A stretch of DNA of 50,635 bases, taken from Alphaproteobacteria bacterium (GTDB lineage Bacteria; Pseudomonadota; Alphaproteobacteria; Rickettsiales; SXRF01). Below, piece after piece: positions 10,158 through 16,155 of this stretch (position 1 is its first letter; each line of letters opens with the position of its first letter). The translations under genes and the position numbers were made by a program. The stretch lies in NCBI GenBank assembly GCA_043763155.1, contig JAYULW010000046.1, positions 1 to 50,635 of the forward strand, read 5' to 3'. The notes beneath the pieces are model-generated. The model searched no databases. It was not told the origin of the DNA and saw only the letters and a list, made by a program, of their open reading frames with translations.

Positions 10158-11075
10158 TCATTCCCCGTGTTCGATGATGCGTTTGACGACGTAATGCGGG
10201 CGGCGGCGGACCTCTAGATAGATGCGGCCCACATATTCGCCGATCAGGCCAAGGCCGGTGATTGCGATGCTGATGAGAAGGGACAGGAGCGCGTCGGTGC
10301 GGTGGCCCGTGCCGAAGAGAAGCAGCCAGAAAAAGAGGAGGGCGCTGATGGCGGACAGGCCGATGCCGACCAGCGTGAATATTTGCAACGGCACGAGCGA
10401 AGAGCTGGTCATGAGGTCGAAATTCAGGCGCAGGAGGCGGTAGAGATTATAATTCGACGTTCCGGCGGCGCGCTCTTCGTGGCCGACTTTGATTTCGGTG
10501 GGGTTGGCTGCAAAATACCAGCTTAACTCAGGGATGAAGGGGGTGGCTTCGGGGGAGGCCACGATGAGGTCCACGATTTCGCGCTTGTAGGCGCGCAGCA
10601 TGCAGCCCTGGTCTTTCATGCGCATGTGGGTGATGCGTTCGCGCAAGGCATTGCTGGCACGGGAAACGATTTTGCGCCATGGGGTGTCGTGGCGCTCGGC
10701 GCGGTAGCCGCCCACCACGTCGTGGCCTTCTTCGATTTTGGCGATGAGGGCGCCGATGTCTTCGGGCGGGTTTTGCAGGTCGCAATCCAGCGTTACGATG
10801 ATTTGGCCGCGCACGGCGGCGAAGCCCGCGATGATGGCTTTGTGCTGGCCGGCGTTGCGCATGAGCTGGATGATGCGCACCGTTTTGGGGTGGCGGGAGA
10901 AGATGTTTTCGAGCTGGGTCTGGCTTGCGTCTTTGCTGCCGTCATTGACGAAGATGACTTCGTAGCTTTTGCCTAGCGCGTCGAGCGCGGGGAAGAGGCG
11001 GGCCTCCATCAGGGGCAGGCTTTGCTCTTCGTGATAGACCGGAATGACGATGCTTATAGCGGGGTCTGTTTTCAT
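10158..11075 (-). CDS. arnC: ArnC-like GT2 undecaprenyl-phosphate sugar transferase
   Basis: SIVIPVY, FVNDGSKD, RNAGQHKAI, TLDCDLQNPPE, DQGCMLRAY, two C-terminal TM segments and GEYVGRIY..VRRRP. Confidence 0.8.
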   Translation of the reverse strand: MKTDPAISIVIPVYHEEQSLPLMEARLFPALDALGKSYEVIFVNDGSKDASQTQLENIFSRHPKTVRIIQLMRNAGQHKAIIAGFAAVRGQIIVTLDCDLQNPPEDIGALIAKIEEGHDVVGGYRAERHDTPWRKIVSRASNALRERITHMRMKDQGCMLRAYKREIVDLIVASPEATPFIPELSWYFAANPTEIKVGHEERAAGTSNYNLYRLLRLNFDLMTSSSLVPLQIFTLVGIGLSAISALLFFWLLLFGTGHRTDALLSLLISIAITGLGLIGEYVGRIYLEVRRRPHYVVKRIIEHGE

Positions 11076-11160
11076 AGGTTGAAATTAAAGCAAGTTTCTG
11101 TTGGTGCAATGTAATTCTGACGGATTGCGCGAAAGTGGGGGCGGGCTTATAGCTTATGGG

Positions 11161-12060
11161 ATGGATACTATTGTTTTTGCATATGGCGCTATGGGGTGTG
11201 CGGGGATTCGGGCGCTGAAGACGGCTGGGTACCGGATTGCGGCGGTGTATACGCATGCGGGCGACGATGCGGCGGCGGGGGAGTCGGTGGCGGCGCTGTG
11301 TGAGGGGTTGCGGATTCCGACGTTTATTTTTGAGGGGAATGAGCAAGAAGAGCTGGTGCGGATGGTGCAGATAGCACCGGATTTCCTGTTTTCGTTTTAT
11401 TACCGGGCGCTGCTGCCCGATGTGGTGCTGAGCGTGGCCAAGCGCGGGGCCTTTAACCTGCATGGGTCGCTGCTGCCTAAATACCGGGGCCGCGCGCCGG
11501 TGAACTGGGTGCTGGTTAACGGCGAAAGCGAGACGGGGGTAAGCTTGCATTATATGACGTCGCGGGCGGATGCGGGGGACATTGTGGGGCAGGCGAAAGT
11601 GGCCATTGCGGATGAGGATGACGCGCGGACGCTACAGCAGAAATTGTTGGTTGCGGGGGCGGAATTGTTGAAGGCTGTGCTGCCTTTGATTGCCAAAGGC
11701 ACGGCACCCCGGCAGGTGCAGGATCTGGCGGCGGGGAGTTATTTTGGACGCCGGACGCCGGACGATGGGCGCATTGACTGGAAACGTGGGGCGAGTGTGG
11801 TGCGCAATTTGGTGCGGGCGGTGGCGAGGCCGTTTCCGGGCGCGTTTTCGGCGGCGGCGGGGCGGAAGTTTTTGGTGTGGGAAGCGGTGATTGTGGAAGG
11901 TGCGGGTGTTGCCGGCGAGGTGGTTTCGGTTTCGCCGCTGATTGTGGCGTGTGGCGAAGGCGCGGTGTGCGTGGTGCAGGGGCAGGTGGATGATGGGGTT
12001 GTTCCGGGAGCGGTGGTTGCGGAAATGCTGGGCTTGCGTGTGGGCGAGGTGCTGGGATGA
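11161..12060 (+). CDS. Stand-alone ArnA-type UDP-L-Ara4N formyltransferase (no decarboxylase domain)
   Basis: MDTIVFAY.., PDFLFSFYYR, FNLHGSLLPKYRGRAPVNWVLVNGESETG, SYFGRRTPDDGRIDW, NLVRAV..PFPGAF; ends at about 299 aa. Confidence 0.87.
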   Translation: MDTIVFAYGAMGCAGIRALKTAGYRIAAVYTHAGDDAAAGESVAALCEGLRIPTFIFEGNEQEELVRMVQIAPDFLFSFYYRALLPDVVLSVAKRGAFNLHGSLLPKYRGRAPVNWVLVNGESETGVSLHYMTSRADAGDIVGQAKVAIADEDDARTLQQKLLVAGAELLKAVLPLIAKGTAPRQVQDLAAGSYFGRRTPDDGRIDWKRGASVVRNLVRAVARPFPGAFSAAAGRKFLVWEAVIVEGAGVAGEVVSVSPLIVACGEGAVCVVQGQVDDGVVPGAVVAEMLGLRVGEVLG

Positions 12061-12938
12061 TTGTGGGTTTGCGGGTGGATGTGGATACGACGAAAGGCAT
12101 GCGCGACGGGGTTCCGGCGCTGGTGGCGCTGCTTGCGACGCACGGCGTTCGCGCGACGTTTTTTATGAGCGTGGGGCCGGATAACATGGGGCGGCATGTG
12201 TGGCGGCTGCTGAAGCCCGCATTTTTGTGGAAGATGCTGCGCTCAGGGGCTGCGGGTTTGTATGGGTGGGATATTCTTTTGCGCGGGACATTCTGGCCTG
12301 GCAGGTTGCTCTCGCGGTTTGGGGAACAGATACGGTTTGCGCGTGATGCGGGGCATGAGATTGGGCTGCATGCGTGGGACCATTATGCGTGGCAGACGCA
12401 TGTGGCGGGGTTTTCGGAAGCGAAGATTTTAGCGCATTTGCGGCGCGGGCGTGAGGCGCTGGAGGGGATTTTGGGCGAGCGGGTGCAGTGTTCGGCGGTG
12501 CCGGGGTGGCGCTGCACGGAGAAGGTTTTGCTCGCGCAAGCGCACATGGGATTTGCGTATCATAGCGATTGCCGTGGGGTTTCGGTGTTTGCGCCGGTGG
12601 TAGAGGGTAAGATTCTGGCGCCGCAGGTGCCGGTGACGCTGCCGACCTTTGATGAGGCGGTGGGGCGCGCCAGCGTGACGGCAGAAAATTATAATGATTT
12701 TATTTTGGGCGCGCTGAAACCTGTGGGGTTGAATGTGTATACCATTCACGCTGAAGTAGAGGGTGGAAGCCAGCTTGACGCGTTTGACGCGCTGTTGCGC
12801 ACGGCGAAAGCGCGCGGCGTGCGATTTGTGCCTTTGCGTGAAGTTTTGCCTGAGAATGCGCCTAAGGGGCGCGTGGTGTTGGCGCCGATGGGCGGGCGCG
12901 AGGGGTGGGTTGCGCAGCAGGGTGATGCGGCCGCATAA
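12057..12938 (+). CDS. arnD: 4-deoxy-4-formamido-L-arabinose-phosphoundecaprenol deformylase-like
   Basis: VGLRVDVDT, FFMSVGPDNMGRH.WRL, HEIGLHAWDH, AVPGW, TLPTFDE, VYTIHAEVEG. Confidence 0.88.
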   Translation: MIVGLRVDVDTTKGMRDGVPALVALLATHGVRATFFMSVGPDNMGRHVWRLLKPAFLWKMLRSGAAGLYGWDILLRGTFWPGRLLSRFGEQIRFARDAGHEIGLHAWDHYAWQTHVAGFSEAKILAHLRRGREALEGILGERVQCSAVPGWRCTEKVLLAQAHMGFAYHSDCRGVSVFAPVVEGKILAPQVPVTLPTFDEAVGRASVTAENYNDFILGALKPVGLNVYTIHAEVEGGSQLDAFDALLRTAKARGVRFVPLREVLPENAPKGRVVLAPMGGREGWVAQQGDAAA

Positions 12939-12963
12939 TATTCGGCATAATATTCGGGCATAA
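12933..12963 (+). repeat. 12-bp tandem duplication over the arnD stop codon
   Basis: GCATAATATTCG at 12933 and 12945, with a partial third copy GCATAA at 12958. Confidence 0.75.
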
Positions 12964-12996
12964 AAAAAGGGCTGGCGGTGTGCCAGCCCTTTTTTT
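12962..12996. terminator. Bidirectional intrinsic terminator
   Basis: A7-GGGCTGGC-GGTGT-GCCAGCCC-T7 between the converging arnD and 13009-13977 genes. Confidence 0.9.
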
Positions 12997-13008
12997 ATGT
13001 GTGGTGCG

Positions 13009-13977
13009 TTATACCTGCATGCCGGAATCGGGGCCTTTGATTACGGCACCGGGAGCGGCTTGCTTCTGGCCGCCATCCAGCGGGGTTTTGGCGTTCATTG
13101 CCACTTCCAGGGTCGGGAATTTTTCCGGCGATGCAAGCGCGGATACTTTTTCACCGAATTTCTTCACGCCGCCGGGAGCGGGTGCGTCGGGGCCTTTGGC
13201 GTCGTTCAGGGCGCCTTCGATGGCTTCCTTGATTTTGTCGGCATCGCCACCGGCGTCTTTGACTGCCTGAATGACTTTCTTGGCACCGGCGGGGTTCTTG
13301 GCGGTAGCGGTTAAGGCTTCTACCAGAAGGTCGGGGTTATCCTGAAGCACTTTAACAGCTTCTGGCGGCAGCTCTTTCATGAGCAGGTCGGTTGCCTTGT
13401 TTACTTTGTCGGCAGCGCCTTTGATGGTGTCGGTTGCGCCGTAACGCTTGGCGTTGTTGCCGGACACGCTGTATTTGCCCTGACCATCGGTCTGGCCTGC
13501 GGCTTCGCGGGCTTTCTGCTCGATGGCGGCATTGGCGATTTCTTCTTTGATAGTGCCGCCTGCTTCGATGCGTGCCAGCGCTTCACCCATTTTCGCCCTT
13601 ACATCGGCGGGTTTGGGTTTGTCGCCGCCATTGGCTGCGGAGAGGTTGGCGATTACGAGGCGGGCAAGGGCCTGGCCTTCGTTGCCGGTGATCTGCACCT
13701 TGTTGCCGCCAGCTACATAATTCGCGACGGGCTTGCCCTGGCCGGGGTTGGTCAAGGCGGGGTTTGCGATGGTGTTGTCCACAATCTGGTCCATGCGGGT
13801 TTTTGCGTCGTCCGCATTTTTAGGAGCGCCTTCGAGGCTGTCGCCGCCAGGAGCGCCACGCGATTGCATGTCGTTCTTCACGTCGTCGTTGTTTTTCAGG
13901 CCACGGTCATCGCGGTATTTGCGAATTTTATCAATGGCACCTTTTTGCTGGTTATTAAAACGACTGCCGTCACCCAT
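13009..13977 (-). CDS. Hypothetical Ala/Lys/Gly/Asp-rich protein (paralogue 1)
   Basis: 322 aa, AGGAG RBS, own terminator, no Cys/Trp/His, no signal peptide or TM segment. Shares ordered blocks with 14229-15047. Confidence 0.88.
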   Translation of the reverse strand: MGDGSRFNNQQKGAIDKIRKYRDDRGLKNNDDVKNDMQSRGAPGGDSLEGAPKNADDAKTRMDQIVDNTIANPALTNPGQGKPVANYVAGGNKVQITGNEGQALARLVIANLSAANGGDKPKPADVRAKMGEALARIEAGGTIKEEIANAAIEQKAREAAGQTDGQGKYSVSGNNAKRYGATDTIKGAADKVNKATDLLMKELPPEAVKVLQDNPDLLVEALTATAKNPAGAKKVIQAVKDAGGDADKIKEAIEGALNDAKGPDAPAPGGVKKFGEKVSALASPEKFPTLEVAMNAKTPLDGGQKQAAPGAVIKGPDSGMQV

Positions 13978-14044
13978 ATACGTCTCCTGTTATTCGTGTT
14001 TCGGTTTTCCTAGAGAGGCCTATCGGTGCCACCCGTATGCTATA

Positions 14045-14091
14045 AGAATATCATGCAAAATGCTTAAAAACTGTGAACAAATTGTTACAAT
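14045..14091 (-). promoter_or_regulatory. Putative promoter: operator box plus extended -10
   Basis: Minus strand GTAACAATTTGTTCAC-N19-TGATATTCT; same architecture as 15149-15195. Confidence 0.65.
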
Positions 14092-14179
14092 TGGCAGTTT
14101 GTGATTTTGTTGTATTTCAGTGTGTTGCTAATCTTTATGGCTTAGGGCAAGGGTTCTTAAGGGAGTTCTTAACAAGCAT

Positions 14180-14216
14180 AAAAAAAGGCTGGCGGGGATG
14201 CCGCCAGCCTTTTTTT
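14180..14216. terminator. Intrinsic terminator of paralogue 2
   Basis: A7-GGCTGGCGG-GGATG-CCGCCAGCC-T7; stem related to the 12962-12996 terminator. Confidence 0.9.
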
Positions 14217-14228
14217 CGTGTCTTCGGA

Positions 14229-15047
14229 TTAGCTCAGGGCGATTTTGCCGCCGGTCTGTGCCATGCCGCCAATGAGGCCAGCCACGTCTTTGGCAGACGT
14301 CGTAGCTTTGTCATTGCTTACAATCACGGTGTCTTTGTTGATGTTCATGGCGGAAACTTTTACTTTCGCGCCCAGGTCGTCGAGGATGCCCTGTGCTTTT
14401 ACTTTATCGCCATCATCTACGGCTTTGTTGAGCTTCTTGGCAAAGTCTTTGTCTTTGCCGGCTTCGATCAACATGCCTGCCTGCTTGTCAGCGAGGTCTT
14501 TTACAGCGTCTTCACCCAGAAGGGCTGCTGCTTTTTCGAAGGCTTCCATGTTGCCTTTGGCTTCGGTGCGGAAACCAGCGAGCTTTGCAGTGCGCGTGGT
14601 GCCCATGGCAGCAATCTTTTCGTCGGTGAGCTTCATACCGATCTTGGCGTCGTCGGCGATGGCGCCGGCGGCTTCGTTAGCGGCATATTCTTTCAAAGCG
14701 GAATCCAGTTTGGCCTGGAATGCTGCTTTTACGCCTTGGGGAGAAGCGAGGATTTCGTCAAATGCTTTGCCCATTTCTTTTTTAGCAGCCGCACCGGTGG
14801 TGCGCTTGCCGAGCTTTGCTTCTTCGTTTGCTACCAGTACGGTGGCCAGGGAGTCCAGATCGCCGTAGCTCAGGTTGCCGCTCAGGCTTGCGCCGGCTTT
14901 CTTGCCGAATGCTGCCTTGGGGGTGACTTTTTCCATCTGGCCAGCGTCTTTGTTGTAATCATGCTCGCCGCCGCGGCTGCCAATGCGATCGCCTACGAAT
15001 CCAAAAGCGTCTTTAAGGTCTTTGTTGCTACCAGTAACTTCAGCCAT
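14229..15047 (-). CDS. Hypothetical Ala/Lys/Gly/Asp-rich protein (paralogue 2)
   Basis: 272 aa, AAGGAG RBS, own terminator, no Cys/Trp, frequent GCT/GCA/AAA codons, no signal peptide. Confidence 0.88.
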   Translation of the reverse strand: MAEVTGSNKDLKDAFGFVGDRIGSRGGEHDYNKDAGQMEKVTPKAAFGKKAGASLSGNLSYGDLDSLATVLVANEEAKLGKRTTGAAAKKEMGKAFDEILASPQGVKAAFQAKLDSALKEYAANEAAGAIADDAKIGMKLTDEKIAAMGTTRTAKLAGFRTEAKGNMEAFEKAAALLGEDAVKDLADKQAGMLIEAGKDKDFAKKLNKAVDDGDKVKAQGILDDLGAKVKVSAMNINKDTVIVSNDKATTSAKDVAGLIGGMAQTGGKIALS

Positions 15048-15148
15048 TTTCGTGCTCCTTATAAATTATATAGAGTATGTAGTCTGAACTACCCCGATCA
15101 TCCGGGCCGTGAATTTTAACAGCCGCGCCTCCGTGAGGGCGGTTGTGT

Positions 15149-15195
15149 AAATTATCACGTACCGTAGCAAAGAAAAGTGAAACAATTGTTACGAT
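15149..15195 (-). promoter_or_regulatory. Putative promoter: operator box plus extended -10
   Basis: Minus strand GTAACAATTGTTTCAC-N19-TGATAATTT; 16/19 identical to the box at 14073-14091. Confidence 0.65.
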
Positions 15196-15482
15196 CTCTT
15201 AACCAAGAGGCGGATTTTACATTTTTTTATGACCGTTAATATTAAAGAGAGATTACCGAAAAAGATTGTTTTCTTGTTATTCGGTCGCTTATTTTTTAAA
15301 AACCTCCAAAATCCGTCATATAATTGTCACAAATTACCAGTGTATTCCGGGGCATGACTTGTGTAAGATGAGATGGTCTGCAAATGAGGCTTTGTTCCTC
15401 GCAGATATTTTGGTTAGCACTCTATGTCCTTTGAGATATTCAGTGCTTTATTATTAAGTCTACTTTGTAAGGACTAACTACT

Positions 15483-15845
15483 ATGAAAACCCAGACCAAA
15501 GACTTAAGCCTGACTTGGCAGATCTGCCTGATGGTAATGTTGAGCGCAGTTATCGTGATGATGCCTGACTTCGCATATGCCGCATCCTCCAACACCCCCA
15601 TGGGTAACGTACTTTGTACCGTTCTCGCATGGTTTACCGGCAACACCGGTAAGGGTCTTGCCACCATCGCCGTAACTGTTATCGGCGTTGGCGCATTGCT
15701 CGGTAAAGTATCTTGGGGTATGGCCATGATCGTGGGTATCGGCGTTGCAATCGTGTTCGGTGCCGCTGGCATCGTGAACGCAATGGGCGGCGGCGTAACC
15801 GGCATCACCGGTAACGGTACCGCAGCAGCAGCTACTACCTGCTAA
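15483..15845 (+). CDS. virB2: TrbC/VirB2-family type IV secretion pilin
   Basis: Long signal peptide ending in AYA, then LC....WFTG..GKGLATIAV..IG.GALLGKVSW..A..V..GVAIVFGA with two hydrophobic helices. AAGGA RBS and own terminator. Resembles rickettsial RvhB2 pilins. Confidence 0.9.
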   Translation: MKTQTKDLSLTWQICLMVMLSAVIVMMPDFAYAASSNTPMGNVLCTVLAWFTGNTGKGLATIAVTVIGVGALLGKVSWGMAMIVGIGVAIVFGAAGIVNAMGGGVTGITGNGTAAAATTC

Positions 15846-15864
15846 TTGCTACGAGACAAAAAGG

Positions 15865-15899
15865 AAAGGCCTTCCGGGAAACCGGGAGGCCTTTTTTTT
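15865..15899 (+). terminator. Intrinsic terminator of virB2
   Basis: AAAGGCCTTCCGG-GAAA-CCGGGAGGCC followed by a T8 run. Confidence 0.92.
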
Positions 15900-15902
15900 G
15901 GT

Positions 15903-16084
15903 CTTTATAGAAGTGCGCTCAAGCGCCGCGCATGCTGCGCGCCGCAATGGCGCTAGTCGTCGTATAGGACTCCTCCGGTGCTTGCTTTGGGGGGCTTTAT
16001 AGAAGTGCGCTCAAGCGCCGCGCATGCTGTACGCCGCAATGGCGCTAGTCGTCGTTTAGGACTCCTCCGGTGCTTGCTTTGGGG
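15903..16084. repeat. Two tandem copies of a 92-bp structured element
   Basis: Copies start at 15903 and 15995 and differ at 3 positions over 90 bp; multiple internal inverted repeats. Confidence 0.95.
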
Positions 16085-16155
16085 TTTTGGGTTAGGCGTC
16101 ACTTAGGCAGCACTGTTCAATGCGGTAGTGGTGGGGAGTGCTTGTCTGGTTTGCG

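Follow-up and report, generated by a model that had tools for sequence, protein, structure and literature searches.

What role might two genes without recognizable relatives play beside a gene for a type IV secretion pilin? The question is raised by a stretch of DNA of 50,635 nucleotides (hereafter the window), contig JAYULW010000046.1 of assembly GCA_043763155.1, from a bacterium of the order Rickettsiales (lineage SXRF01). Two genes on the minus strand of the window, termed here A and B, lie next to a virB2 pilin gene on the plus strand. A preliminary description regarded the two as a duplicated pair from a family of abundant proteins that are exported by the type IV secretion system (T4SS) or associated with its pilus. 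Our comparisons indicate that the two genes are an insertion peculiar to this species and do not form a module that recurs beside pilin genes. The reading that we favour, tentatively and at somewhat less than an even chance, is that A and B are lineage-specific candidate substrates of the T4SS whose expression may be coordinated with it.

Both A and B are real genes, and each is its own transcription unit. Their coding potential, 0.565 bits per codon for A and 0.591 for B, compares with a genome mean of 0.37 (sd 0.15; n = 709 long open reading frames, ORFs), and an antisense ORF over B scores 0.17. The sequence AGGAG is located 6–7 nt 5′ of the ATG in both. Each gene ends in a terminator hairpin whose fold was matched by none of 200 shuffled sequences, and the stem GGCTGGC..GCCAGCC is present after A and after B and nowhere else in the genome. 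The two promoters have a core of about 45 bp in common, the heart of which, GTAACAATT(T)GTT, occurs in the 2.27-Mb genome at A and B only. The coding scores, AGGAG elements, folds and shared core therefore bear out the original view of two monocistronic genes with matching promoters, strong ribosome binding sites (RBS) and strong terminators. Models of sigma-70, sigma-28 and extracytoplasmic function (ECF) sigma factor promoters gave no convincing fit to either promoter, and Rfam gave no match above any gathering score in positions 12800–16100.

Because single Logan contigs span the junctions between A, B and the pilin gene with 0 differences in each of two sequencing runs, these junctions are not an artefact of binning. 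The two runs, X1 and X2, are possibly those of the source samples; their contigs cover 12188–15797 or 12188–15650 and include, besides A and B, a deacetylase gene and the pilin gene. In a further run (X3) the identical pieces are all short and reach a depth of about 2x, and in another (X5) most pieces are unlike the locus. DNA of the locus was found in rock and sediment metagenomes.

Composition and hydropathy agree with the earlier characterization of the two proteins as rich in Ala, Gly, Lys and Asp, free of Cys and Trp, and devoid of a Sec signal or transmembrane (TM) segment. Ala, Gly, Lys and Asp account for 15.8, 11.8, 10.9 and 8.4% of the residues of A; the corresponding values for Ala, Lys, Gly and Asp in B are 18.0, 13.2, 11.4 and 9.2%, and both proteins have 0 Cys and 0 Trp. 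The highest 19-residue Kyte–Doolittle mean is 0.58 in A and 0.81 in B, which indicates that neither has a TM segment, and with N-terminal hydropathy maxima of −0.74 and 0.81, respectively, neither N-terminus is hydrophobic. The grand average of hydropathy (GRAVY) is −0.63 for A and −0.31 for B. The helical hydrophobic moment is 0.99 for A and 0.95 for B, versus 0.80 (sd 0.06 in each case) for shuffled sequences. Alignment-free AlphaFold models are mostly helical with disordered termini, at a mean predicted local distance difference test (pLDDT) of 62.9 and a predicted template modelling score (pTM) of 0.52 for A, and a pLDDT of 43.5 for B; a predicted complex of A with B scored 0.00 (without controls). 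When model A was compared with the PDB by Foldseek, the best match had an E value of 0.2 and the top rows were designed helical repeats, and a wide fold search with VIA did not rise above the noise level of helical models (best Z 5.4).

Neither protein could be placed in a family by Pfam (at E up to 1), NCBIfam, PHROGs or PADLOC; among phage and defence families the best PHROG match had an E value of 0.096 and PADLOC gave none. The ESM Atlas returned nothing for either, and a phmmer search of the PDB with B reached E 1.4. A word-indexed search of 5.8 billion clusters with A, B and an A+B profile yielded self matches only. Full HMMER comparison of B with 1.84 billion representatives recovered only B itself and a 1346-aa repeat protein (P0003), a match that we reject as an artefact of summing over repeats. 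Closer to home, no further relative was present in the organism's own genome, and none in the genomes of 60 relatives, where one match at 0.0027 fell within a 1253-aa frame. The A+B profile, run against 400 genomes of the order, found this genome and one chance-level match at 0.0039, and two metagenome scans detected no relative. A match of A to armadillo proteins was rejected as a hit. Residues 205–244 of A align with one repeat of designed or natural armadillo proteins, and its model resembles a helical repeat, but the low whole-sequence E value arises from this one segment being summed over all repeats of the target; the independent E value of the 40-residue segment is about 4 per stretch, and Pfam gave no Arm match. 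Judged by these searches A and B are ORFans specific to one species, and the notion of a protein family finds no homologue to build on in the protein, metagenome or 400-genome searches.

The resemblance between A and B themselves is faint. BLASTP aligns them at E 0.15 and MAFFT at 31% identity, but a colinear Smith–Waterman alignment of A78–259 with B35–224 has a score of 95, where shuffled sequences give 55.5 (sd 9.1); none of 1000 full shuffles score as high, and 2 of 1000 do so when blocks are shuffled. Because this alignment beats the shuffles, and because the promoter core and terminator stem are unique to A and B, we infer that the genes are probably old, very diverged tandem paralogues that arose by duplication of the whole promoter–gene–terminator unit. 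The pair can thus be called duplicated in the sense of a remote paralogy, but not in any closer one.

Next to B, across a spacer of 435 bp with 37.7% GC, resides a gene whose product matches the TrbC/VirB2 family PF04956 at 68.3 bits (cut-off 27.9; E 7.1e-19). Its highest 19-residue hydropathy (2.47) and N-terminal 9-residue maximum (2.86) point to a hydrophobic leader and membrane segments. The AT-rich spacer and the pilin were correctly recognized in the preliminary description, but the layout is head-to-head and not 'back-to-back'. The linkage itself fares differently. Both available genomes of the same genus (2/2) carry a polysaccharide deacetylase gene, about 300 bp and then the pilin gene, with no A or B between them. 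Across 57 related pilin loci, all from metagenome-assembled genomes of uncultured Rickettsiales or Alphaproteobacteria, a PEBP gene lies 3′ of the pilin gene at 19 and an Nfu gene at 17, and relatives of A or B are found at none (0/57; tblastn best E 0.077). The gene that precedes the pilin at the eight loci scanned encodes a glycosyltransferase, a sulfotransferase, a DEAD helicase, a hybrid kinase, an N-methyl protein, an EF-hand/dockerin protein or, in two cases, a family-less protein. Because the congeners lack A and B and the preceding gene differs among these eight loci, sequence comparison identifies the pair as a species-specific insertion in a variable slot beside a positionally conserved pilin copy. 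Conserved synteny of the pair with virB2, which had been put forward as a check, is not observed, and by the same comparison a recurrent virB2-linked module fails.

In two other genomes the occupants of this slot, both unrelated to A and B, are also Cys-free and hydrophilic. One is a 370-aa ORFan (L038:3604–4716, minus strand; E 0.92 and 0.44 against A and B), and the other is a 275-aa EF-hand/dockerin-like protein (L024:2730–3557, minus strand).

The secretion apparatus itself is encoded elsewhere in the genome, which is 92.9% complete and has 56.5% GC. There are four copies of virB2. A virB2-B4-B6-B8-B9 cluster is located on contig C93, virB10-B11-virD4 on C120, virB3-B4 and three more virB6 genes on C29/C36, and a second virB9 on C57. 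The available portions of PMC2653234 and PMC9352585 describe the rvh T4SS of Rickettsiales as having scattered and duplicated components, including virB2, and no virB5. Here too the genes form scattered islets, virB4, virB6, virB9 and virB2 are duplicated, virD4 is present, and the VirB5 family (PF07996) has no match in the genome at its 92.9% completeness, nor in A or B at E up to 1. By gene content, then, the genome carries a scattered rvh-type T4SS, as the existence of virB and virD4 genes on these contigs confirms for the earlier supposition of an rvh/VirB system. When the genome's own ten T4SS proteins were compared with the contig that forms the window by tblastn, the only match was at the pilin gene, so the window indeed holds no other virB gene. 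The 'orphan' pilin gene of the preliminary description is one of the four virB2 copies in the genome. Flagella are also encoded (four Flagellin_N matches; flagellar genes on C55). Together with the rvh T4SS and 56.5% GC, the flagellins fit the basal environmental lineages that the accessible part of PMC9352585 describes.

If position does not tie the pair to the T4SS, regulation might. A repeat finder picked up the A/B core once more, in a weaker form, at 15308–15333, upstream of the pilin gene. The element AATTGTCA(C/T)AAA precedes the pilin gene in both congeners and the other virB2 copies of this genome. Among the pilin copies of relatives, TTGTCA[CT]A is found in the sense orientation no more than 300 bp upstream in 19 of 69 cases, versus 32 of 3066 background windows, mostly 141–192 bp before the pilin start. 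Once aligned, the sites reveal a tandem direct repeat with an 11-bp period, TTGTCAYA-N3-TTGTCAYA (hereafter the box), which also precedes the virB2-B4-B6-B8-B9 cluster of this genome. Open-access papers and preprints yielded no description of a Rickettsiales box of this kind.

A position weight matrix (PWM) was made from the 19 sites of relatives, with no sequence from the genome under study, and was scored over 4.5 million positions. The four pilin sites of this genome rank 1, 2, 19 and 20, and a site in the gene A promoter (14070–14092, plus strand) ranks 9, with 19.8 bits on the plus strand and 15.0 bits on the minus strand. Among 1665 genes called by a custom ORF and codon-score procedure, gene A ranks 30 by the sense strand and 10 by either strand, and gene B ranks 85 by the sense strand. 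Because only 1 of 100 column-permuted PWMs ranked gene A as high, and 20 of 100 did so for gene B (not significant), the match of gene A exceeds what AT-richness would produce and that of gene B does not. A half-site variant of the gene A core, TTGTAACAA, occurs at seven sites in the genome, six of them intergenic. It stands before gene A, before a Cys-free ORFan of 471 aa on C119 and before a gene that has a perfect 11-bp tandem of TTGTAACAA, and it is also found at the unrelated ORFan divergent from the pilin gene in L038. The proposed co-expression with the pilin and the T4SS thus stays plausible for gene A, whose promoter has what appears to be a variant of the virB2 box, but finds no such footing at gene B, where the match is at chance level.

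The genes located downstream of the box provide some information about what it might control. Among the 11 non-pilin genes at box ranks 3–14, nine have no Pfam family and the other two are COX3 and GDT1, whereas among 20 randomly drawn genes of similar length only 4 lack a family (Fisher one-sided p = 0.0014). Five proteins hand-picked from exact 8-mer sites were left out of this count; four of these lack a family and one has sub-threshold matches only. Cys-free proteins are weakly enriched behind the box (9/30 versus 258/1635, p 0.04). An all-against-all BLASTP comparison of 17 box-linked proteins gave no pair with E < 0.05. For one congener (G002), eight box-downstream genes were scanned or already known, and they encode three VirB2 pilins, four Pfam-less proteins and one Sel1-repeat protein.

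Some of these products have features of their own. Only 6 of the 1665 crude genes encode proteins that end in -QV, and three of them are box-linked family-less genes, at ranks 3, 6 and 30; their ends are SQQV (C119:11223–11702), TQQV (C36:16479–17660) and GMQV (gene A). This ending may be a C-terminal tag, a suggestion made post hoc from small numbers. At C119:18577–21144, two adjacent Cys-free genes of 331 and 471 aa are each preceded by a box-like site; these sites rank 21 and 14. Pfam assigns the 471-aa protein to no family, and the site of the second gene has the core AATTGTAACAATT in common with gene A.

Tandem direct repeats with an 11-bp period are typical of winged-helix response regulators. 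In the mechanism that we propose, the A/B core, TYGTAACA-ATT-KGTTYCAC, would be a variant of the tandem TTGTCAYA-N3-TTGTCAYA. One regulator, probably a winged-helix response regulator of the OmpR/PhoB type, would turn on the T4SS, the pilins and a set of lineage-specific proteins together; the genome encodes seven OmpR/PhoB-type output domains, which are candidates for this part. This would make A and B candidate substrates, or effectors, of the T4SS. Export by the T4SS is plausible for them because co-expression with the T4SS is plausible, given the box variant before gene A. A box common to virB2 and to lineage-specific, family-less genes would make it possible to name concrete candidate substrates for testing and would offer a way to reach the regulator. 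For basal, apparently free-living Rickettsiales, the portions of PMC9352585 and PMC11077975 available to us report an rvh T4SS to which no verified effector could be assigned, and present its role, killing bacteria or acting on protists, as debated. The family-less genes that follow the box, which here would comprise A and B together with at least nine more and in the congener a different set, could be the first candidate substrates of a basal-lineage T4SS, some of them perhaps marked by a C-terminal -QQV tag, but this broader proposal we consider rather unlikely.

Several observations weigh against substrates co-regulated with the T4SS. Gene B matches the box no better than permuted matrices allow, and the best match of gene A is antisense to the gene, its sense match being the weaker one. 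The sites behind the PWM were chosen for an exact 8-mer and come from related, non-independent genomes, and the gene calls used for ranking are crude. The exact 10-mer is not over-represented in the congener G002 (15 sites versus 14 for the reversed control). Absence from the congeners means that A and B cannot be core to the T4SS. On the side of export, family scans found no eukaryote-like or toxin domain in A or B, the last 30 residues of each carry a net charge of +1 with no recognizable secretion signal, no C-terminal motif common to the regulon candidates was found, and the structure models are weak. RNA runs are absent from the sequencing runs listed as containing the locus.

Table 1. 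Features of the A/B–pilin locus (positions in the window).
Feature	Position	Strand	Score or basis
Gene A; 322 aa, 33 kDa, pI 8.7; soluble, mostly helical ORFan without Cys or Trp	13009..13977	-	
Gene B; 272 aa, 28 kDa, pI 7.7; soluble helical ORFan without Cys or Trp; probable remote paralogue of A	14229..15047	-	
RBS AGGAG of gene A	13984..13988	-	sequence reading
RBS AGGAG of gene B	15055..15059	-	sequence reading
Two-way intrinsic terminator of gene A; hairpin with a 5-nt loop and perfectly paired arms of 18 nt; runs of A and of T	12959..12999	-	-29.8 kcal/mol, z -9.05
Intrinsic terminator hairpin after gene B; stem sequence identical to that of gene A	14180..14216	-	-28.6 kcal/mol
Gene A promoter/operator core TTGTAACA-ATT-TGTTCACA (11-bp period), then TTCACA-N16-CATGAT; includes box match 14070-14092	14050..14094	-	
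Gene B promoter/operator core TCGTAACA-ATT-GTTTCAC, then N17, CGTGAT	15154..15196	-	box PWM 12.1 and 10.1 bits
Conserved virB2 upstream box CCGTCATA-TAA-TTGTCACA, 159 bp before pilin ATG	15312..15334	+	25.5 bits, genome site rank 2
TrbC/VirB2 pilin paralogue, 120 aa; positionally conserved before PEBP and Nfu genes	15483..15845	+	PF04956
Pilin gene terminator	15860..15899	+	-34.8 kcal/mol

A and B could instead be abundant cytoplasmic proteins with amphipathic helices, serving in stress protection, in the coating of storage granules or as structural elements. A dedicated regulator would then control them, and chance would account for their lying next to virB2 as well as for the likeness of the boxes. 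Several observations fit this explanation, which we judge somewhat unlikely: the composition rich in Ala, Gly, Lys and Asp without Cys or Trp, a hydrophobic moment above that of shuffles, strong single-gene expression signals, codon scores above the genome mean and the lack of an export signal, as well as an exact promoter core that is limited to A and B, a chance-level box match at gene B, and the occurrence of the DNA in rock and sediment metagenomes. However, neither protein matches a phasin, LEA or other stress family of Pfam or NCBIfam at E up to 1, their GRAVY values are not extreme, and the box rank of gene A is equalled by 1 permuted matrix in 100. Housekeeping stress proteins, moreover, are seldom confined to one species, and genomes of the same genus are without A and B. 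Quite improbable, in our estimate, is export of the two as unfolded surface or extracellular proteins, independently of a Sec signal, by the flagellar apparatus or a type I system. An organism that encodes flagella and two proteins with disordered termini and no Cys or Trp would suit such a route, but no match to a flagellin (Flagellin_N and Flagellin_C at E up to 1), hook-associated or RTX family was found, there are no Gly-rich nonapeptide repeats, and the A/B core is not visible by eye in the regions upstream of the flagellin genes.

The absence of a PF07996 match from the genome, which agrees with the lack of virB5 from rvh systems in the available part of PMC2653234, leaves a place that A and B might fill as pilus-associated proteins, such as a VirB5-like minor pilin, tip or sheath. 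They adjoin a pilin gene, are similar to VirB5/TraC minor pilins in size and helical content, and VirB5 works with VirB2. Set against this, A and B have no signal peptide, which the same portion of PMC2653234 reports as predicted in most VirB5-like proteins, they match neither PF07996 nor any other family, and they are missing from both congeners and from all 57 pilin loci, where the pilin is kept. The sheath or tip role suggested by the preliminary description finds no evidence, given the first two of these points. We conclude that the pair is not a pilus part, and disfavour its replacing VirB5 as very improbable. We attach just as little probability to A and B being recent genes, possibly de novo or decaying, that have no selected function. 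ORFan status would be expected of such genes, but both frames (322 and 272 codons) are intact, their codon scores exceed the genome mean and their RBSs are strong, and the unique promoter and terminator cores have been kept in both copies despite the divergence of the coding sequences.

Some further features of the neighbouring DNA and of the congeners were noted. A 13-nt unit, GCATAATATTCGG, is tandemly repeated at 12925–12960, within the 3′-terminal part of the deacetylase gene and immediately ahead of the gene A terminator, and a remnant like the terminator flank (T7-ATG) lies at 15222–15235; both may be insertion scars. GC skew is positive in all 1-kb bins of the window (0.03–0.37) and is lowest (0.03–0.07) solely across 13001–16000, where A and B sit on the minus strand. 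Downstream of the pilin terminator and before the PEBP gene, positions 15900–16083 consist of two tandem 92-nt copies that are 96% alike. These are members of a dispersed repeat family, which has 28 matches on 23 contigs of the genome, and the depth of the X1 and X2 contigs peaks there. Because the contigs of G001 (ends of C13 and C5) and G002 (ends of C13 and C12) break in or beside tandem virB2 copies, pilin copy number is probably under-assembled in these congeners. On the other side of the pair, at 10158–12938, genes for a family 2 glycosyltransferase (GT2), a formyltransferase and a polysaccharide deacetylase are grouped, which we take to be akin to an aminoarabinose lipid A modification cluster; the formyltransferase gene is missing at this place in G001.

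Among known regulatory elements, the virB2 box resembles the Pho box of PhoB, which is likewise built of direct repeats at an 11-bp period around a TGTCA core. The two differ in the genes they precede, which here are pilins and family-less proteins and not genes for phosphate uptake, and a Pho-regulon reading of the box was rejected on this ground.

The secretion system resembles the rvh T4SS of Rickettsiales in its scattered islets, its duplicated virB4, virB6, virB9 and virB2 genes and the lack of a detectable virB5. A and B are outside the components and effectors described for that system in the available parts of the cited papers, and they occur in one species only. The closest parallel to the regulatory arrangement that we propose is provided by the PmrA and CpxR regulons of Legionella and Coxiella. 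As set out in the accessible part of PMC2701608, PmrA and CpxR elements are common to icm/dot genes and effectors and were used to find Legionella effectors. Those regulons serve the Icm/Dot type IVB system, in which effectors were predicted by the element, whereas the present case concerns a type IVA system of the rvh type, a different motif (the TTGTCAYA tandem) and computational evidence alone. What the two would have in common is an element that stands before secretion genes and also before many lineage-restricted, family-less genes.

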